From positions 1 through 9,571 of IMG/VR virus record IMGVR_UViG_2703718868_000012: 9,571 bases of DNA; one strand, 5' to 3'. Shown here in pieces: positions 1 through 9,571 of the stretch (its first letter is position 1; every line of letters begins with the position of its first letter). A program made the translations under genes and the position numbers. The stretch comes from a virus (taxonomy: Duplodnaviria > Heunggongvirae > Uroviricota > Caudoviricetes). The notes below the pieces were generated by a model that saw only the letters and a program-made list of their open reading frames with translations, ran no database searches and was not told the DNA's origin.

Positions 1-1890
1 TCATAGTGAATCTGTCCCGCCTGATTTGACCATACCGCGATAATCCAGAGCTGCCACACCTGCATCAATACGGACTTTCCAGGCCACGCCGTCAACGATA
101 AAACCTTCCTGCTGTTCAAGGTAAGGCTCGTCATTGCCATCAAGATAAGCCACCTCGATTGTGTCCGTTCCCTGTGCGGAAAGCATGTACCATTGTTTTT
201 CGCTGATATCATCAAGGCGGGGATCGACGATGATATCAAGTAGCTTGTGATACGGGTTAAAGATCCCGCTGTTTTTATCAGCCCCGAAAGGTGCGGTTGA
301 GTTAATCATCTGCAACGCGCGATCTTCCAGTGCTGCCGGAACTAAAAGGAATTTAGGCGCAATATTCAGCACTTCGCCATTTTTGTCCTTCTGTGTGCGC
401 ATCAGGTGACGTGCTGCACTAAGTCCCGGTGTTGTCAGTCCTGCTTCAATCAGGTTGCTGTGTTTTTTGTCAAACAGCGCTATTCCGTCAGAAAGTTTTA
501 CGTTGCCTGTAAGCACCAGATTAACCAGATTTCCCACCGTTCTTGATGCTGCACGGCCCATAGCCATTGGCACCGTTGATAACTGATCAAGGTCATCATT
601 GATTATCGCCTGGCGGGTAATACTGAAAATATTCCCGTAAGTAGCCAGCGCGATGGGTTCACCGCGATCGCTGGTGGTGATGTATTTATATTCTGCCCCT
701 TCCGGCACTTTGTTTAACGTTGAGAAGCCATTCATACCAACGCGGCGGGCTTCCCGGAAGTTTGAAAGGGAACCTTTTTTCGTCCACTGGCGGAATGTTT
801 CGCCGCTGTGCTCCCAGCCTGCAAGCACTGATTTTTCAGCGCCACCAGCAAGAATATCGGTAAAATCGCTGCTGCTGTGGGTGAATGCCGCGTTTACTAT
901 CTGCGAGCGTGTGCCGTAGCTGCCCGTGCTTATACCACGATGGGTTAATGATGCCTGTGCCATATCGAAAAGGCTCATCATGGCGTAAGGATTACCGCGT
1001 TCGGCCCGTTCGTGACCAAGACGCGCATTAAGCCCCTGGCGCATTGCATCGCCGGTTATGTTGCCGTTATCCGTGTACGCGTAGTAAAGATTTGCGGGGG
1101 TGGTTTTGTTTGTTGGCGTTGATTCTTTACCCATAGCGAGTAAAAGGCGTTCGCGTGCATTCTCAACGCTACATTCTGAATCAGCAAGACAACTTATAGC
1201 CAGGTCGTTATATCTTCCGTTGAACGTGCCAAACAATTCACGTATCCCGTTGAGTCGTTCCTGTTCTCCGCTGCCAGTTTTCTGGCTGATCATGTTTTTA
1301 ATATTTTCCGGCATATTTGAAAAATCTCCGATTCGTTTTGATTCAATTCGGGCCATTGCTGTAATCGCGGGTATAACCTCATCTGCGAAACCGTTAGCCT
1401 TACACTCATTGCCATCCATCCAGGTTTCCGCCTCCATCATGGCGGTGATTTCCTGTTTACTCCTGCCCGTTCTTCCGGCGTAGGTTTCTGCCATCGTGTC
1501 GCCCAGCTTGTCCATCAGGTCAGCAAAGCGGCGAACGTCGCCCGACACTCCGGCAGTAACACCACGGGGGGCATGTATCATCATCATCGCGTTTTCAGGC
1601 ATAACGATGTGATCGCCACACATGGCAATAAACGAGGCCATAGAAGCCGCCATGCCCTCAATGTGTACAATTTTCTTTGCCGGATGATTTTTCAGGGCGT
1701 TATAGATAGCCAGCCCTTCAAAGATGTCGCCACCAGGTGAATGGATGCGAAGATGGATTTCAGACGCATTACCACACGCGTTGATCTCGTCAGTAAGTGC
1801 CGATGCTTTTACACCGTACCCGCCGATCTCGTCATAAATGCGCACATAGACAACATCTGCCATAGCCTTAATGGAAAACCATGTTTTCAT
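1..1890 (-). CDS. Prohead serine protease (ClpP-like) - scaffold-like linker - HK97-fold major capsid protein, single 629-aa polypeptide
   Basis: ATG at 1890, TGA at 3-1. N-terminal ~170 aa carry ClpP-like motifs GMAASMASF (compare E. coli ClpP GQAASMGAF around the catalytic Ser) and MMMIHAPRG (ClpP MIHQP, catalytic His). Middle ~100 aa are charged and helical. C-terminal ~330 aa look like an HK97-family major capsid protein (...FNPYHKLLDIIVDPRLDD...). Confidence 0.85.
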   Translation of the reverse strand: MKTWFSIKAMADVVYVRIYDEIGGYGVKASALTDEINACGNASEIHLRIHSPGGDIFEGLAIYNALKNHPAKKIVHIEGMAASMASFIAMCGDHIVMPENAMMMIHAPRGVTAGVSGDVRRFADLMDKLGDTMAETYAGRTGRSKQEITAMMEAETWMDGNECKANGFADEVIPAITAMARIESKRIGDFSNMPENIKNMISQKTGSGEQERLNGIRELFGTFNGRYNDLAISCLADSECSVENARERLLLAMGKESTPTNKTTPANLYYAYTDNGNITGDAMRQGLNARLGHERAERGNPYAMMSLFDMAQASLTHRGISTGSYGTRSQIVNAAFTHSSSDFTDILAGGAEKSVLAGWEHSGETFRQWTKKGSLSNFREARRVGMNGFSTLNKVPEGAEYKYITTSDRGEPIALATYGNIFSITRQAIINDDLDQLSTVPMAMGRAASRTVGNLVNLVLTGNVKLSDGIALFDKKHSNLIEAGLTTPGLSAARHLMRTQKDKNGEVLNIAPKFLLVPAALEDRALQMINSTAPFGADKNSGIFNPYHKLLDIIVDPRLDDISEKQWYMLSAQGTDTIEVAYLDGNDEPYLEQQEGFIVDGVAWKVRIDAGVAALDYRGMVKSGGTDSL

Positions 1891-2508: not shown

Positions 2509-2532
2509 AAAAAAGCCGGATTGCTCCGGCTT
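2509..2532 (-). terminator. Rho-independent terminator downstream of the ssb-like gene
   Basis: Hairpin AAGCCGG (2513-2519) / CCGGCTT (2526-2532), loop ATTGCT. On the minus strand it is followed by a U-tract (plus-strand A6 at 2509-2514). Lies ~15 nt past the stop at 2547-2549. Confidence 0.6.
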
Positions 2533-2546
2533 CTGTCACTCGTCGC

Positions 2547-2969
2547 TTAAAACGGTATGTTATCCCCGTACGGATCATCATTCCCCGCCTGTTGTTTTGC
2601 CCTGTTCAGCGCGTCAGTAGCCTGGCCCTGTTGACCTTTTTTGCCGCCCAGTCGCGCCGTTCGCGCACTGATTACACTGTCTGCGATAACCTGCCAGCCC
2701 TGCCGCGTTTCTCCGTTCTGCCCAGTCCACTGGCTGATCTGCATGTTACCCGCCACGCTCAGGAGTTCACCCTTGCGGTGCCTTTCCAGTGCTTCGGCCT
2801 GTCTGCCAAATGCCAGGACGGATAACCACATCGTCGCCGTTCCGTCATCTGCCTGGCTGCACGGAAGGGGGACCGCCATACGCGCCAGCGTCATCGGTGT
2901 GCCCTTGCTGGTCTGTTTTACCTGCGGGTCGTCCACCAGCCGCCCGTAAGCGGCTATCTGTGCTGTCAT
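2547..2969 (-). CDS. ssb: Single-stranded DNA-binding protein (SSB-like, OB fold with acidic ...IPF tail)
   Basis: 140 aa. N-terminal region aligns by eye with E. coli SSB (GRL..DP.V...W..V..FG..AE....KG....V.G......W....G..R). Gly/Gln-rich linker. C-terminus DDPYGDNIPF resembles the conserved SSB tail DDDIPF. ATG at 2969 overlaps the upstream stop as ATGA. Confidence 0.8.
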   Translation of the reverse strand: MTAQIAAYGRLVDDPQVKQTSKGTPMTLARMAVPLPCSQADDGTATMWLSVLAFGRQAEALERHRKGELLSVAGNMQISQWTGQNGETRQGWQVIADSVISARTARLGGKKGQQGQATDALNRAKQQAGNDDPYGDNIPF

Positions 2970-3223
2970 GATTCCACCTCTCCGGTTTTAACGTTGATTG
3001 TTGTTACCTGTTCCGCTTCGGCAATCTCCCGCTCTGTCAGCGTGGCAAAATTTGCCGCCGTCGTGGTCATGAATGCGCTTATCAGTTCGGGATGTGCTTT
3101 CGCGTATCCTTCCCCCGTGTTGCGGTCGATGATTTTTATCGCCACTCTCAGCCAGTGCTCTGTAAGGTCAATGGCGCGGTTATGCTGCTTCTTCTGATTA
3201 TTAAGTTTTCCTGATGTGCGCAT
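2966..3223 (-). CDS. Hypothetical 85-aa protein between the origin and ssb
   Basis: ATG at 3223 with a G-rich SD-like stretch (GAGGGGG) ~13 nt upstream; 4-nt ATGA overlap with ssb. No recognisable motif. Confidence 0.5.
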   Translation of the reverse strand: MRTSGKLNNQKKQHNRAIDLTEHWLRVAIKIIDRNTGEGYAKAHPELISAFMTTTAANFATLTEREIAEAEQVTTINVKTGEVES

Positions 3224-3271
3224 TTTTATTTTTACCCCCTCGTTTAAAAAGTTTTGAGTTGTGCCTCCCCT

Positions 3272-3498
3272 TGTCTACCTTATCTACCTTACTGGCCACC
3301 ATGCCAGTAATGGCGCGGCTTTCAGTGGGGTAGAGTGCTTTTATCCACTATCTACCCCGTATCTACCTCCCTGTCTGATTCAGGTAAAATCAGGTAGAGA
3401 GGGTAGATAGTAGGTAGACAGTAAAAAAAGGCTGTCTACCCAAGTTAATGTACTGAATTAAATGTATTTTTCTTTACTCAGGTAGACAGGGTAGACAG
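3272..3498. repeat. Iteron array, putative replication origin
   Basis: Eleven copies of the core GGTAGA / TCTACC. Plus-orientation TCTACC at 3274, 3283, 3351, 3362, 3435; reverse GGTAGA at 3329, 3393, 3402, 3413, 3481, 3490. Includes tandem GGTAGACAG x2 (3481-3498) and a 9-bp inverted pair GGTAGACAG (3413-3421) / CTGTCTACC (3432-3440). AT-rich stretch 3441-3480. Sits immediately 3' of the primase gene. Confidence 0.7.
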
Positions 3499-3511: not shown

Positions 3512-5266
3512 TTATAAAAACGCGTCGCAATCGTCTGTTGTTATTGCGTTAGTCTGCGTTACTCCTTTAACTTTCCGCGTAATATATTCATGTCCGTAAA
3601 CTTTCGCGGCTGGCTTCATAGCCTTGCCAAAGTCATTTACGTTTAGCGGTTTGCTCCTGCCTGCGTACGCCATAAACGCCAGATAGACGCGGTAAAGGCT
3701 GTTTCTGGTCGTGTACTTCACTGAATCGCCACCGCCGCCCATCATCAGGCCGCGTGCTTCCTCCAGAAAATTCAGGAACTGGCAAAACTCAATAACCGGA
3801 TCCGTCTGTTGCTTTATTGCCAGTGCTTCATCACCGTCACGCTGTTCCAGTAGTAAAGCCCGTGCCTTCTCAGGGTCGGTAAAGTTCGCCAGCAATCGGC
3901 GGATAATGACAGGGATTTCAGCCGCAATCTTTTCCGGTAGCTCCCTGTCTTTTTCGGCCTCACTGACGATATTGTCGAAACGGAAAATCACGCGACGACG
4001 TGCCACACCTCCGGCCCGTTCGGTGAATATCATCGGGTTATTGTTGGTCGCCAGCACCACCGCCCTGATTACAGCCGTGAAACGCTTTTCGTATTTCGGG
4101 TTAATTTCCACGGGGTCACCGCCCGTGATTTTCTTGATGCCCGTTCCTTCGCCTGTATATTTCGGCTGGTCAGCCAGGACGATAAGGCGACTCCCGACAA
4201 CCTGCGCACGTCCACCAGCATCATCAAGCGATGTCATTTCAGCGCTTACCGTGTTCTGTTTCCCTGCCAGAAGGCTGGCTATGTGTGTGAATGTACTTTT
4301 ACCGCTCCCGCCGTCTCCGGTGGCCTCAATAAACATCTGCCAGTCGTACCGGTTCGCCATAATCATGTACAGCGCGGCACATATCCGCATCATCTTGCGC
4401 GGGTCTTTTCCGGCTGCGTGCTCAAGCCATTTATGAAAGTTTGGCGCGTTATCGCGGATGTTCTCCCCTGGTGCTGGTGGCGTGTACTCAATACTGTTGT
4501 GCGTGGTGATCCAGTTCTCCGGCGTGTGCGGGGAAAATTCCCCCGTTTTCAGGTCAAGCGCACCATTGGCAAACGGCAGCAAATCGCCGGACGGCTCGCC
4601 CATTGGTTCGGCAATAACTTTTAACGCTTCCACGGCGTTATTGATTACGCGCTTGCTGAAAGTGGCCCTGTGCTCTGAATAGATCGCCACCATTTCGCGG
4701 CTAAGTTCCATTGTGCTGACCGGACACCATACCCCGCCGCGCCATACGTGAACGATTTCACTTTCAGGATGCACGCAAACGCCATCAAATCGTCCGGCAA
4801 GAAGTTGAGCGCGCTCACTGTCCGCCATCTGCGAAAGTTGCGCCTTTTGCTTTACAGGAAGCTCAATAACCAGCCCATCAGAAAGATTCTGGCGCTCACT
4901 GGCCAGATATTCGCGCCAGTTCTCCACCTTCTGACCGTGCATACCATCAGGGTAAAAATTTGCATCCTGTACGCCTGCCGCCGCCAGCTTCTGACCAATC
5001 GCCTTTATCATTACTGGCGCAAGATATCCGGCCCTGAATATGCGCACGGATTTTCTGCCTTCCGGCACAATTTGCAGCTTATCCAGTTCTGATAACTGCT
5101 GCTCCCCAAGCCACACAGGAGGCTCATTATCTCCGGCCATACGCGCGTCATGTTCCTGCCATTGTTTCGCGTGTGACCAGGCATCACTACCCGCAAAAAT
5201 AATGACTTCTGTTTCTTTGTGTTTTATGCCGCGTGGCTGCTGTTTTACGTTCGGTGCCAGTTTCAT
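3512..5266 (-). CDS. Phage/plasmid primase, P4 family (primase-helicase, D5-like NTPase)
   Basis: 584 aa. Walker A GDGGSGKST seen directly; a Walker B-like hydrophobic stretch ...LIVLAD... follows. Overall resemblance to the P4-alpha C-terminal / D5-type replicative primase-helicases of satellites. ATG at 5266 overlaps the upstream stop as ATGA; SD AGGGG ~8 nt upstream. Confidence 0.85.
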   Translation of the reverse strand: MKLAPNVKQQPRGIKHKETEVIIFAGSDAWSHAKQWQEHDARMAGDNEPPVWLGEQQLSELDKLQIVPEGRKSVRIFRAGYLAPVMIKAIGQKLAAAGVQDANFYPDGMHGQKVENWREYLASERQNLSDGLVIELPVKQKAQLSQMADSERAQLLAGRFDGVCVHPESEIVHVWRGGVWCPVSTMELSREMVAIYSEHRATFSKRVINNAVEALKVIAEPMGEPSGDLLPFANGALDLKTGEFSPHTPENWITTHNSIEYTPPAPGENIRDNAPNFHKWLEHAAGKDPRKMMRICAALYMIMANRYDWQMFIEATGDGGSGKSTFTHIASLLAGKQNTVSAEMTSLDDAGGRAQVVGSRLIVLADQPKYTGEGTGIKKITGGDPVEINPKYEKRFTAVIRAVVLATNNNPMIFTERAGGVARRRVIFRFDNIVSEAEKDRELPEKIAAEIPVIIRRLLANFTDPEKARALLLEQRDGDEALAIKQQTDPVIEFCQFLNFLEEARGLMMGGGGDSVKYTTRNSLYRVYLAFMAYAGRSKPLNVNDFGKAMKPAAKVYGHEYITRKVKGVTQTNAITTDDCDAFL

Positions 5267-6428: not shown

Positions 6429-6502
6429 AAATTTACCTCTCTATAGTGTTTGTGGTTAGACGCCCTGCATGTGTTCCAGCACTGTGGGGCGTTGTTTTTT
6501 GG

Positions 6503-6575
6503 TGCAAGTCACCTTGAAATCTAGGTTACTTTTAGGTGACTTGCACTTCAAGTCTTTTTTTATTTTTTTTTCTCC
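6503..6575. promoter_or_regulatory. Divergent control region: 12-bp perfect inverted repeat (operator-like) followed by a hairpin and long T-tract
   Basis: TGCAAGTCACCT (6503-6514) and AGGTGACTTGCA (6534-6545) are exact reverse complements, 19-bp spacer. Second hairpin GACTTG (6538-6543) / CAAGTC (6549-6554) is followed by T7-A-T9 (6555-6571). Lies between the divergent starts at 6428 (minus) and 6613 (plus). Confidence 0.45.
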
Positions 6576-6612
6576 GTATACTGAACACCACCTAACAGTA
6601 AGGAGAACAGAG

Positions 6613-6792
6613 ATGCCAACAGGTACAACCAACAACAAGTCACAACAAAAAACTGCTAGAGTACCTCTAGACGTTTTAAGCGAAATGAATTTGGTAAAAG
6701 AAGAAAACGAAACAGACGCACAATTTATCGTTACTGCCATGCGCGGCGAAATCAAACGCCGCCAGCGTCGCAAGGCCAAAGAATCAGAATAA
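6613..6792 (+). CDS. Small basic protein, possible ribbon-helix-helix DNA-binding regulator (59 aa)
   Basis: Canonical SD AAGGAG (6600-6605) 7 nt before the ATG at 6613. Sequence ...ARVPLDVLSEMNLVKEENETDAQFIVTAMRGEIKRRQRRK fits a beta-strand / helix / loop / helix RHH pattern with a basic tail. The first ~120 nt are markedly AT-rich. The longer track ORF from 6469 would translate the palindrome and T-tract. Confidence 0.55.
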   Translation: MPTGTTNNKSQQKTARVPLDVLSEMNLVKEENETDAQFIVTAMRGEIKRRQRRKAKESE

Positions 6793-6849
6793 TCACTATC
6801 AGCGCCGTGGTGTGAGGTACTACGGCGCATTGCTTTACAGGGCAGTATC

Positions 6850-7077
6850 ATGACCAACAACACACTATCACCAATACAAGACACGCAAACGCAAGATGAT
6901 GAAATCATCCGGCAAAGGCAGTCAGAAGCCTGCGCCAGACTTGAGGAAGAACTAACCAGAACAAAAATACCACCACCAGCGCCGCGCTTAGTGCCACCAG
7001 AAAAATTTGCCCTTGAAGATTTTGTCGATAAATACCCACGGCGGCTTAAATCCGGCAAAAACCGACCGCCAGGATGA
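6850..7077 (+). CDS. Hypothetical 75-aa protein (acidic, helical N-half, Pro-rich C-half)
   Basis: ATG at 6850 with a weak GGG SD ~7 nt upstream; reading frame looks protein-like. Preceded by hairpin GCGCCGT (6802-6808) / ACGGCGC (6822-6828). Confidence 0.4.
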   Translation: MTNNTLSPIQDTQTQDDEIIRQRQSEACARLEEELTRTKIPPPAPRLVPPEKFALEDFVDKYPRRLKSGKNRPPG

Positions 7078-7196
7078 GTGCACAAGACGGAACCATGAAA
7101 CGGATTATTCCGTTTCCGGGGCGTTTGTGTGTGTATAAAGAGTAAGCTATGCTCTTTTATAGCCATAATCGTTACCTCAATTAATGGTTTGGTTAG

Positions 7197-7238
7197 AAGC
7201 CCGTTGGTGTTCATAGCGCCAGCGGGCTTTGCTTTTTG
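7197..7238 (+). terminator. Rho-independent terminator ending the 6613-7077 transcription unit
   Basis: 11-bp stem AAGCCCGTTGG (7197-7207) / CCAGCGGGCTT (7219-7229) with one G-U pair, 11-nt loop, then a U-rich tail TTGCTTTTTGTG. Confidence 0.5.
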
Positions 7239-7248
7239 TGTTGATTGT

Positions 7249-7282
7249 ATGTAATGTGTCACCACGCATAAATACATTACAT
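7249..7282 (+). promoter_or_regulatory. 9-bp perfect inverted repeat, candidate operator just upstream of the Arc-like gene
   Basis: ATGTAATGT (7249-7257) and ACATTACAT (7274-7282) are exact reverse complements, 16-bp spacer. Preceded by a TTGATT -35-like hexamer (7241-7246); ends 15 nt before the GTG start. Confidence 0.35.
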
Positions 7283-7296
7283 GAGGTGTAATTAAC

Positions 7297-7476
7297 GTGT
7301 CAACACACAAAAACGAAAGGCGTGGTAATCCTCCGTTCCAGTTCCGTTTAGATCCTGACTTACGGGAAAAGATGGAAAAGGCACAACAACATGACGGCGA
7401 TGATTCTCTTGCTGCCTGGATAAAGCGAATAATCCGCAAAGAATTACAGCAACGCGGCATAGAACCCAAAGGGTAA
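7297..7476 (+). CDS. Arc-family ribbon-helix-helix DNA-binding protein (59 aa)
   Basis: GTG at 7297 with SD GAGGTG 8 nt upstream. PPFQFRLDPDLREKMEKAQQHDGDDSLAAWIKRIIRKEL matches the Arc repressor pattern (P22 Arc PQFNLRWPREVLDLVRKVAEENGRSVNSEIYQRV). Absent from the supplied track (GTG start, under 60 aa). Confidence 0.6.
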   Translation: MSTHKNERRGNPPFQFRLDPDLREKMEKAQQHDGDDSLAAWIKRIIRKELQQRGIEPKG

Positions 7477-7571
7477 TTACATTGCCCACCAGCCTGATAG
7501 CGGCTATCATTCCCGTGCTTATGTTTGGGATCACATACACATAAGGCGCAGCAGGTTAATTGTTCACAAGG

Positions 7572-7597
7572 GCGTTCCGGCAACGGGGCGCTTTTTG
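7572..7597 (+). terminator. Terminator-like hairpin plus T5 downstream of the Arc-like gene
   Basis: Stem GCGTTCC (7572-7578) / GGGGCGC (7585-7591) including G-U pairs, loop GGCAAC, then TTTTT. No U-tract on the opposite strand. Confidence 0.35.
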
Positions 7598-7626
7598 TTA
7601 TGTTCATCGTGTCAAGCCTCACACCA

Positions 7627-7833
7627 TTACGCAGCCGTTCCGCGTGCTTCCTGCTCACGTTCTTTCATCCATGCGATTACGTCTTCCTCATACCATCCGC
7701 GACGGCGTAAACCAACGCGAAAACCCTGCGGAAATTCTCCGGCGTTGATCATGCTTTGAAGCGTGCTGTCTGCCTTGATGTGGATAAGTTTTTTTACTTC
7801 CTGGCGAAAGATGACTTTTTTGATTGCTTCCAT
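7627..7833 (-). CDS. alpA: AlpA-family transcriptional regulator / excisionase-like protein (68 aa)
   Basis: ...IKADSTLQSMINAGEFPQGFRVGLRRRGWYEEDVIAWMKE matches the AlpA pattern (helix-turn-helix, then G.FP...LG.R...W...V..W). Sits near the integrase as in P4-like and PICI elements. Confidence 0.8.
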   Translation of the reverse strand: MEAIKKVIFRQEVKKLIHIKADSTLQSMINAGEFPQGFRVGLRRRGWYEEDVIAWMKEREQEARGTAA

Positions 7834-8329: not shown

Positions 8330-9571
8330 CTAAACGGCTCGGATACCCCTTTTACCACTGGCGAGGGTTACGCCCGTCGCCGCAGCCTCGACAAATTCGC
8401 CCCACCAGCGCATAAGCACCACGCGTTTTTCTATGTAGTTGCTCCGGTTGTATGCCCGTCTCACTTCGTTAGTGTCGACGTGGGCAAGTGCGGCCTCGAT
8501 TACGTCCGGCTCGAATCCTTCCTCGTTCGCTGCTGTACTGAATATGGCGCGTAATCCATGAGACACCAGCACGCCAGCGAACCCCATGCGTCGTAATGCT
8601 GCGTTTGCTGTCTGGCTGTTCATTGGCTGCCGTGGGTCTTTCAGACTCGGGAAAACATAATCGCGGTGGCGGCTGATTGGTTTCATGGCCTCCAGCACCG
8701 CCATAGCCTGACCGGAAAGTGGGATAACGTGATCCCTGCGCATCTTCATGCGTCCGGCGGGTATCGTCCAGCGTTGCGCGTCCAGGTCGATTTCATCCCA
8801 CCGCGTTGATGACGCTTCGGCGGGACGGGTTACGGTCAGTAACTGCCATTCAATCAGTAATCTGGTCTGCCGTTCTGTTGCCGATACTGATAAAGCCTGC
8901 ATAAGCTCCGGCAACTGTTCGGGGCGGATTGTTGGCATATGTTTTTTTACAGGGGAGGGGAACGCCTTACGCACATTCATAGCCGGATTGGCATCAATCA
9001 GCCCACTGTTGGCGGCGTAATCCATTACCTCATTAACGCGCTGTAAAACCCGTTTGAGTGTTTCCAGGTTGCCGCGCTCCTTGATGGGGGTAAGCACCTC
9101 AACGAACCTGCGAGCGGTCAGGGTGTCTATTGGGGTGTTGCCGATGAACGGGAATACATATTTATCCAGCGATCGCCAGATGTCTTTAATCGTGTTGGGG
9201 GCCAGATTCTGGCTGATTTTCACCTGGTACCATGCCGCCGCCACATTTTCGAACGTGTTCCCTTGTCTTCGGGCCTCTGCCTCTCGTTTTTTCTTCTCAT
9301 GGCCCTGCGGGTCAGTTCCGGCACTGATTAACGCTCTGTACTCGCTACGGCGTTTTCTGGCATCAGCCAGGGAAACATCATCAAGCGATCCAAAACTCAG
9401 CAATATTCTTTTTTTGTCCGATGGCCGGTAGTAGGAAAATCGCCAGAGTTTTGATCCGGACGGTTTGACCAGGAGAAAAAGCCCTCCGCCGTCCTGTAGG
9501 GTGTATTCCTTTTCCGCTGGTCTGGCTGCTTTGATCTGCACCGTGGTTAATGGGGGTGTTTTTCTCGCCAT
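8330..9571 (-). CDS. int: Site-specific tyrosine integrase, P4 / CP4-57 type
   Basis: 413 aa. N-terminus MARKTPPLTTVQIKAARPAEKEYTLQDGGGLFLLVKPSGSKLWRFSYY is typical of P4-family integrase arm-binding domains. C-terminal catalytic region carries HGLR... and ...RAYNRSNY (candidate His/Arg/Tyr residues). ATG is at the very last bases of the window, so upstream signals are unseen. Confidence 0.9.
   Translation of the reverse strand: MARKTPPLTTVQIKAARPAEKEYTLQDGGGLFLLVKPSGSKLWRFSYYRPSDKKRILLSFGSLDDVSLADARKRRSEYRALISAGTDPQGHEKKKREAEARRQGNTFENVAAAWYQVKISQNLAPNTIKDIWRSLDKYVFPFIGNTPIDTLTARRFVEVLTPIKERGNLETLKRVLQRVNEVMDYAANSGLIDANPAMNVRKAFPSPVKKHMPTIRPEQLPELMQALSVSATERQTRLLIEWQLLTVTRPAEASSTRWDEIDLDAQRWTIPAGRMKMRRDHVIPLSGQAMAVLEAMKPISRHRDYVFPSLKDPRQPMNSQTANAALRRMGFAGVLVSHGLRAIFSTAANEEGFEPDVIEAALAHVDTNEVRRAYNRSNYIEKRVVLMRWWGEFVEAAATGVTLASGKRGIRAV

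Follow-up and report, generated by a model that had tools for sequence, protein, structure and literature searches.

[quoted passage not shown] We consider it probable (roughly 0.7) that this protein serves as an accessory replication SSB within the replication module of a PICI, coating satellite single-stranded DNA (ssDNA) and recruiting host proteins via its C-terminal tip. This reading rests on the family and fold of the protein, the conservation of its aromatic residues and tip, purifying selection, the position of the gene in its operon, and its modular distribution among related islands. The gene is of an ordinary, already annotated kind, and an SSB on a mobile element is a familiar theme. 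What is new here is modest: a tip held under selection across linker swaps, an apparently coupled cassette with an 85-aa gene, the independence of this cassette from the type of initiator and origin, a clade that is essentially satellite borne, and the dispensability of the SSB in some sibling islands.

Satellites of this family occur in about a third of complete Escherichia coli genomes, including those of Nissle 1917 and O157:H7, and the helper-independent replication of such satellites is only partly understood. A satellite SSB clade with a host-type tip offers a testable handle on the host replisome and repair proteins that are recruited by a PICI. SSBs and SSB-bound ssDNA have also recently emerged as infection signals for several defense systems, which makes the island SSB a cheap candidate trigger or shield.

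Genomic setting of the SSB gene

Judging from its gene content, the window appears to be an EcCICFT073-like Gram-negative PICI-type satellite located at tRNA-Pro, with helper-dependent transfer being putative. All of the listed genes lie on the minus strand. They include a tyrosine integrase gene (8330-9571), an AlpA/HTH-like gene (7627-7833; AlpA Pfam match of 17.8, below the gathering score of 21), an initiator of the P4-family primase/helicase type (3512-5266; D5_N, DUF5906, and Pox_D5 C-terminal domain; TIGR01613; phrog_864), and a fusion of a ClpP-like prohead protease with a major capsid protein (MCP) (1-1890), together with several small open reading frames (ORFs), a DUF4222 protein gene, and a 75-aa phrog_4934 gene. 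Among complete genomes, the best match (95.9% identity, 93% coverage) belongs to a roughly 10-kb island that sits at tRNA-Pro between yejM and yejO. In locus L001, two small hypothetical genes separate the protease/MCP fusion gene from the host gene yejO. The traits of Gram-negative PICIs are found in the size and attachment site, the integrase and AlpA-like genes, the presence of its own replicon, and the lack of tail and lysis genes. The preliminary description of the window had spoken of a satellite island, and this is borne out by an element of about 10 kb at tRNA-Pro that has integrase and AlpA-like genes as well as genes for a P4-family primase and a capsid protein.

The ClpP-protease/MCP fusion gene is the sole morphogenesis or packaging gene in the window. 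Relatives of the island carry genes for an MCP and a decoration protein as well as terS, as described for EcCICFT073, a Gram-negative PICI whose products include a capsid homologue and a protein for head decoration (PMC6092414). The head module of capsid-forming PICIs (cf-PICIs) comprises genes for the capsid, protease, portal, and head-tail adaptor and connector, as well as terS, terL, and an HNH gene (PMC10085698). Assignment of the window to the cf-PICIs was rejected, since portal, connector, and terminase genes are absent and only the protease/MCP fusion is present.

The SSB gene and its transcription unit

The SSB gene is located at 2547..2969 on the minus strand, where one ORF of 140 codons plus the stop fills exactly that span; the ORF call is accompanied by Pfam, NCBIfam, and PHROG matches and by AlphaFold2 (AF2) and Foldseek results. 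The feature reported earlier at this location is thus real. Its strand had not been given and is minus by ORF analysis; on the plus strand over the same span, the frame is interrupted by many stops. The 140-aa product is MTAQIAAYGRLVDDPQVKQTSKGTPMTLARMAVPLPCSQADDGTATMWLSVLAFGRQAEALERHRKGELLSVAGNMQISQWTGQNGETRQGWQVIADSVISARTARLGGKKGQQGQATDALNRAKQQAGNDDPYGDNIPF, and its C-terminal end reads ...AGNDDPYGDNIPF. A Shine-Dalgarno-like GGAGAGGTGG (2974..2983, minus strand) can be read from the sequence upstream of the ATG.

Directly upstream of the SSB gene lies its conserved partner, the 85-aa gene phrog_1231 (2966..3223, minus strand; PHROG 1231, E value of 1.4e-47). The SSB ATG overlaps the TGA of this gene (ATGA at 2966-2969), suggesting translational coupling of the two, and we regard phrog_1231 and SSB as a predicted translationally coupled two-gene cassette. 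A phrog_1231 homologue is found directly before the SSB gene in 77 of 80 loci fetched from IMG/VR. Members of the phrog_1231 family come from Escherichia, Shigella, and Citrobacter only, and every one of them is annotated as “hypothetical.” The gene in the window has no Pfam match and no significant PDB sequence match (best E value, 0.14), and the AF2 model of its product is a helical hairpin with a pLDDT of 62.

Farther upstream is an iteron array, the putative replication origin (3269..3498), in which GGTAGA[C/T/G]AG repeats occur in both orientations (repeat families D1, D2, D4, and I1-I6). Exact copies of GGTAGANAG number 7, against 0.13 expected; they are found in both orientations and nowhere else in the window. 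The iterons sit in the 288-bp gap that extends from the primase stop to phrog_1231, with degenerate copies reaching position 3269, and the GC content of the array is 0.41 to 0.45. The SSB gene had been described as lying beside the origin, which is approximately right, given that some 300 bp, including the 85-aa gene, separate the array from the SSB start downstream of it.

On the other side of the SSB gene, an intrinsic-terminator-like hairpin (2509..2535, minus strand; GCCGGA-GCAA-UCCGGC plus a U-run) is located 12 nt past the stop. RNA folding gave it a stability of -23.3 kcal/mol with a z score of -3.6, and equal stability was reached in 0 of 200 shuffles. The hairpin was missed by a consensus terminator scan and was shown by direct folding. 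It is predicted to close the replication transcription unit, of which SSB would be the last gene. A scan of the whole window against Rfam (E values up to 0.1) gave no RNA family.

Protein family, predicted fold, and DNA-binding residues

The SSB matched Pfam PF00436 with an E value of 4.9e-15 (55.9 bits versus a gathering score of 26), the NCBIfam model TIGR00621 (ssb) with 59.4 bits versus a cutoff of 53.95, and PHROG 44 (“single strand DNA binding protein”) with an E value of 3e-37. A second PHROG match, 28350, spans the C-terminal half of the protein only. All 26 of the PDB sequence matches obtained with phmmer are SSBs, the best being that of Thermotoga maritima (1z9f; E value of 4e-11), and the identity to E. 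coli SSB (EcSSB) is 29% over the OB domain. In the AF2 model, for which a 69-sequence alignment was the input, residues 1 to 101 form an OB barrel with a capping helix (pLDDT of about 96), and the tail from residue 102 to residue 140 is modeled with low confidence (pLDDT of 56 to 62) and includes a weakly predicted helix at residues 115 to 127. The best 50 Foldseek matches of this model in the PDB are bacterial SSBs throughout, with target-normalized TM scores of up to 0.84. The preliminary description had called the protein an OB-fold SSB while allowing that a profile search might place it in an unrelated OB-fold family. The profiles give the bacterial SSB family instead, and the identification stands, with Pfam and NCBIfam scores above their cutoffs, an OB-fold model, and structural matches that are all bacterial SSBs. 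RefSeq annotates an identical protein as “single-stranded DNA-binding protein.”

The protein is laid out as an OB domain (residues 1 to 101), a basic linker (residues 102 to 129), and a tip (residues 130 to 140; DDPYGDNIPF). Alignment with EcSSB indicated that three of the four base-stacking aromatics are kept, with W54, F60, and W88 of EcSSB corresponding to W48, F54, and W81 here. Across the alignment of the SSB family, F54 is invariant and W48 is at least 90% conserved. The position of EcSSB W40 is occupied by Cys in the island SSB, within a shortened L2-3 loop. The basic residues K62, K73, and R96 of EcSSB correspond to R56, K66, and R89, and the EcSSB interface residue H55 is replaced by Leu. 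The loss of W40 and the H55-to-Leu replacement suggest that the DNA-binding mode and the oligomeric state may differ from those of EcSSB.

Selection on the C-terminal tip and linker

The codons of the C-terminal tip, DDPYGDNIPF, plus the stop are located at 2547..2582 on the minus strand, and the tip is a putative docking site for host SSB-interacting proteins. In EcSSB, SSB-interacting proteins dock at the C-terminal D-D-D-I-P-F. The two ends align as PY-GDN-IPF against DF-DDD-IPF and share the pattern aromatic-x-D-x-I-P-F, with one acidic residue among the last six residues of the island protein (GDNIPF) versus three Asp residues in EcSSB (DDDIPF). The likeness to the host SSB tail that had been pointed out from the sequence is therefore well founded: DDPYGDNIPF aligns with MDFDDDIPF of EcSSB, is conserved, and is under purifying selection.

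An ending of the D-x-[IVL]-P-F type is present in about 110 of the 120 closest database homologues, and the endings among those 120 include GDNIPF (53), GDGIPF (18), GDDIPF (14), EDEIPF (8), and SDDIPF (6). The homologues without such an ending are mostly partial sequences. In the 69-sequence alignment, which reaches down to about 32% identity, D136 and F140 each show at least 90% conservation. The linker comes in three or more unrelated versions (GGKKGQQGQATDALNRAKQQ..., GGSRRKTTGTQGNQPP..., and longer ones), and the tip persists across them. At greater distances, 5109 proteins from a library of 1.84 billion representatives match the SSB at E values of up to 0.001; the best of these are short SSBs (about 125 to 150 aa; 35 to 60% identity), many of which end in F-[DN]-D-x-[ILV]-P-F. 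A cluster look-up placed the nearest of the distant representatives in Hafnia and yielded hardly any taxonomy for the rest.

Over 52 distinct alleles, dN/dS was 0.20 for the OB domain, 0.10 for the linker (only columns shared with the linker in the window being used), and 0.11 for the tip. The whole SSB gene, tail included, is under purifying selection. The linker of the island SSB comprises about 28 residues and is basic and partly predicted to be helical; it is not rich in Gly, Gln, or Pro and has no PxxP motif. A linker that is constrained, basic, and partly helical hints at an extra interaction.

Distribution and modularity of the SSB cassette

SSB DNA was present in 1655 of 5426 complete E. 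coli genomes, at 2113 places in total, with up to 6 per genome and nearly all of them chromosomal. In IMG/VR, 377 contigs, mostly satellite sized, encode a relative of the SSB, and the 80 loci fetched from that source have a median length of 10.3 kb. By replicase, those 80 loci divide into 49 with the primase type, 20 with a RepA helicase, and 11 with another type; by capsid module, 37 have the fusion and 32 have the lambda type. Between the replicase and SSB genes, GGTAGANAG iterons were found in about 20 of 51 primase-type loci and TGTTCACC-type repeats were found in 28 others, and repeats of the AAAGTGRG type accompany RepA helicases. The iterons accompanying the cassette are thus of three types, the replicases of two, and the capsid modules of two, so that the cassette is not tied to one initiator or origin. 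The candidate explanation that the SSB is an origin-specific accessory was rejected on the basis of the three iteron types and two replicases.

Individual elements illustrate this modularity. E. coli Nissle 1917 has an island at the same tRNA-Pro site whose SSB gene is identical (100% DNA identity) and in which genes for a lambda-type major capsid protein, a head-decoration protein, and a small terminase take the place of the fusion. In O157:H7 strains, whose island occupies a different site, the SSB is 72% identical and a RepA-family helicase replaces the primase; the Sakai record labels its island “prophage Sp7; untypable.” In Leclercia, a 62%-identical SSB comes after a different primase-helicase (Zn-ribbon, Toprim, and DUF927) in an integrated phage-like element. 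The SSB gene likewise lies downstream of the replicase gene in the Nissle, O157, and Leclercia elements. A scan of genome contigs yielded 6 loci only, too few for statistics, all of which are integrated elements with an integrase gene 0.7 to 8 kb upstream.

No phage homologue of the SSB with more than 32% identity was found in 50,697 phage records, and, within the scope of this database, an origin of the SSB by borrowing from a helper phage was rejected. Among plasmids, 82 of 72,556 records have any SSB match, few of them with more than 60% identity. As far as these sequence records go, the SSB clade appears to be essentially confined to satellite islands of about 10 kb.

Two syntenic siblings at tRNA-Pro (L011 and L012), with 91 to 98% identity in the primase and about 99% identity in the capsid fusion, lack the SSB gene; one of them keeps phrog_1231, and the other is without both genes. 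Among records with the same primase type in an even sample of the E. coli matches, SSB was present in 17 of 20 and phrog_1231 was present alone in 3 of 20. The existence of SSB-less sibling islands suggests that the SSB is dispensable for island maintenance and perhaps also for replication. Overall, the SSB is common, maintained, portable, and dispensable for island persistence.

Proposed role and alternative explanations

We propose that the island SSB acts as an accessory to satellite replication in the following way. A helper phage would induce the island, and the replication operon would be transcribed from the primase gene through the origin, the 85-aa gene, and the SSB gene to the terminator. 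The primase-helicase would open the iteron origin, and the OB fold of the island SSB would coat the ssDNA exposed at the satellite origin and forks. The DDPYGDNIPF tip would dock host SSB-interacting proteins onto the satellite DNA, for example the chi subunit of Pol III, DnaG, PriA, and nucleases or helicases of DNA repair. The island SSB may thereby supplement host SSB while helper and satellite replicate together, and it would do so as a generic portable accessory, not as an origin-specific factor. We infer the ssDNA binding, oligomeric state, tip partners, expression timing, and replication benefit that such a role would entail. The preliminary description had suggested that the SSB may buffer satellite replication from the host or helper; this is plausible, and what the sequence data show is an accessory that is maintained.

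Other roles can be considered in light of work on antiphage defense. Phage SSBs trigger or mediate Retron-Eco8, DARNA, Hna, and AbpAB, the named trigger SSBs being T7 gp2.5, T4 gp32, and T5 D11. The preliminary description had flagged the island SSB because phage SSBs act as defense triggers; the literature claim is right, but its bearing on a PF00436-type SSB is unsupported, as the named triggers are unlike PF00436 proteins. Neither Retron-Eco8 nor DARNA responds to E. coli SSB. [quoted passage not shown] The nearest parallel for the idea of a trigger is the FDDDIPF-tip protein of the DRT10 preprint, the SSB-like Bas52_0087, which triggers DRT10 in a way modulated by host ExoI/SbcB (bioRxiv 10.64898/2026.04.29.721553).

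Selective retention of the tip while linkers were swapped would also suit a protein whose tip competes with host SSB for SSB-interacting proteins or displaces them from ssDNA, with the effect that host factors are diverted from the helper or that ExoI/SbcB and RecJ are blunted against replication intermediates. The dispensability of the SSB in some siblings points the same way, as interference and accessory genes are often dispensable, and so do the phage records, which suggest that the clade is satellite borne and not helper derived; the DRT10 preprint, moreover, proposes that its FDDDIPF-tip phage protein perturbs SbcB-dependent ssDNA metabolism. We nevertheless consider such interference unlikely, because the gene lies in the replication unit and not in an interference or late zone, and the conserved OB DNA-binding core speaks for real coating of ssDNA. 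The host-mimicking tip, the constrained, basic, and partly helical linker, and the coupled 85-aa partner could together be read as a portable “host-interface” cassette, selected for its tail and not for bulk coating of ssDNA. It would capture or blunt host enzymes such as ExoI/SbcB, RecQ, or PriA or would hold ssDNA in a “host-like” state and hide the replication of helper and satellite from abortive-infection systems that sense ssDNA or SSB (DARNA, retrons, and DRT10). This is a rather unlikely reading; if it were true, phrog_1231 and SSB would together act as an immunity modulator encoded by the satellite. The absence of the SSB from some sibling islands might instead mark it as a decaying or nonfunctional passenger, but that is hardly credible in view of dN/dS values of 0.10 to 0.20 over 52 alleles, an ORF that is intact in hundreds of genomes, and the conservation of the ribosome-binding site, coupling, and terminator. 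A pseudogene was rejected on the dN/dS values.

The host-type character of the island SSB could also make it a counterdefense shield that, during replication of helper and satellite, sequesters ssDNA and silences DARNA- or Retron-Eco8-like abortive-infection sensors of phage-SSB-bound ssDNA. Retron-Eco8 is not activated by host SSB, and the DARNA preprint reports that DARNA stays inactive when the ssDNA is covered by E. coli SSB; in the model of its authors, host SSB sequesters ssDNA in uninfected cells. The shield is purely inferential, however, and a PADLOC scan of the SSB and its small neighbors matched no defense-system model and gave no anti-defense signature. Lambdoid helpers, lambda among them, rely mostly on host SSB in any case, and we regard shielding as quite improbable. 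Lambda is the helper reported for EcCICFT073 (PMC6092414). Conversely, the island SSB could be sensed as foreign and activate host defense systems upon expression, as phage SSBs do with the four systems named above and as the FDDDIPF-tip protein does with DRT10. We find this very improbable: T7 gp2.5, T4 gp32, and T5 D11 are structurally unlike PF00436 SSBs and EcSSB is no trigger, roughly 30% of E. coli genomes stably harbor the gene, some with as many as 6 copies, and triggering would be a liability, not a function.

Comparison with known systems

The island SSB resembles EcSSB in its Pfam/TIGRFAM family, its OB fold, its equivalents of W54, F60, and W88, and its aromatic-x-D-x-IPF tip. It differs in length and sequence, EcSSB being a homotetramer of 178-aa subunits and the island protein having 140 aa with 29% identity, and in its linker, which is disordered in EcSSB but short, basic, constrained, and partly predicted to be helical in the island SSB. 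Bacterial-type SSBs with a host-like IPF tip are also known from other mobile elements, namely, conjugative plasmids (F Ssb) and phage P1, where they presumably supplement host SSB during the element's own replication or transfer. Unlike those plasmid and phage proteins, the island clade is rare on plasmids and, above 32% identity, absent from the phage records searched.

Among earlier studies of PICIs, “Primase, SSB and DUF5906” has been defined as a replication category in Gram-negative and helper-embedded PICIs, at mapped origins, in a paper of 2023 (PMC10111431). The element and the position are like those described here, with an SSB accompanying Primase or DUF5906 and mapped origins. That work categorizes the SSB family only and leaves aside the tip, the 85-aa partner, the modular distribution, and any function. 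SSB is unmentioned in the E. coli PICI papers PMC6092414, PMC6739421, and PMC11773190, in the cf-PICI preprint (10.1101/2025.02.11.637232), and in the SatelliteFinder paper, and a literature search brought up no experiments on any PICI SSB, this protein included.

Bas52_0087, compared here by its description, shares with the island SSB an SSB-like fold on a mobile element, a host-mimicking tip, and a proposed interface with SbcB/ExoI. It differs in being larger, with two predicted OB-fold domains and escape substitutions at positions 252 and 351, and in being encoded by a BASEL phage. T7 gp2.5 and T4 gp32 have an OB fold and an acidic C-terminal tail (with a Phe end in gp2.5) that recruits replisome partners, but they belong to another structural family, their partners are phage and not host proteins, and they are documented triggers.

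Putative origin and replicase

The interval from the primase stop to the next gene contains an iteron array (3269-3498) with repeats in both orientations, including seven exact copies of GGTAGANAG, against 0.13 expected, together with degenerate copies. This array is the likely origin of the island. Among the 80 IMG/VR loci encoding SSB relatives, the replicase-SSB interval of sibling islands holds different repeat types at the equivalent position: TGTTCACC-type repeats, which resemble the phage P4 ori iterons, at 28 primase loci, and AAAGTGRG-type repeats at loci with a RepA helicase.

The first ~125 residues of the 584-aa primase (residues 1-125, window positions 4892-5266) are 62% identical to the N terminus of the "helicase RepA family protein" of O157:H7 islands (counterpart at 10813-11178 of L009, one such island locus), and therefore constitute one module common to two different replicase types. 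No Pfam match was obtained for these ~125 residues, and PHROG 2850 spans primase residues 1-129.

SSB linker and partner gene

The E. coli chromosomal SSB has a disordered linker, whereas that of the island SSB (residues 102-129, window positions 2583-2666) is short, basic, and not Gly/Pro/Gln-rich; a helix is weakly predicted for residues 115-127. Purifying selection on this linker is strong (dN/dS of 0.10), and the linker may provide an extra interaction surface.

The SSB gene is, judging from an ATGA overlap, translationally coupled to an 85-aa gene of phrog_1231 (2966-3223, minus strand), and the two genes adjoin in 77 of the 80 IMG/VR loci. The phrog_1231 gene is kept without SSB in L011, a syntenic sibling island, and in three E. 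coli records (H125-H127). The family is narrow, being found in Escherichia, Shigella, and Citrobacter, and its product is predicted with low confidence (pLDDT of 62) to form a helical hairpin.

Late module and flanking regions

An AT-rich spacer (2115-2546; 432 bp, GC content of 0.36 to 0.40) separates the SSB terminator from the capsid module and probably divides the replication transcription unit from the late one. It contains a second strong inverted repeat (2273-2285/2297-2309), a terminator-like site on the plus strand (2300-2317), and a single minus-strand promoter-like site (2191-2164).

The sole morphogenetic gene in the window encodes a fusion of a ClpP-like prohead protease and the major capsid protein (1-1890, minus strand; NF045540, 891 bits). 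Close relatives that share the att site of this island carry, in place of the fusion, a lambda-type major capsid protein (MCP), a decoration protein, and terS, so the late module is exchanged as a whole.

The region at 6430-7630 is probably part of the sequence absent from the nearest relative of the window (93% coverage). Its AT skew is strongly positive, and a minus-strand 400-aa ORF (6456-7658) looks spurious. Small ORFs lie on the plus strand, one at 6469-6792, whose counterpart in L001, an island relative at tRNA-Pro, overlaps a gene annotated as YlcI/YnfO family, and one at 7297-7476, which matches L009 at an annotated Icd-like pseudogene.
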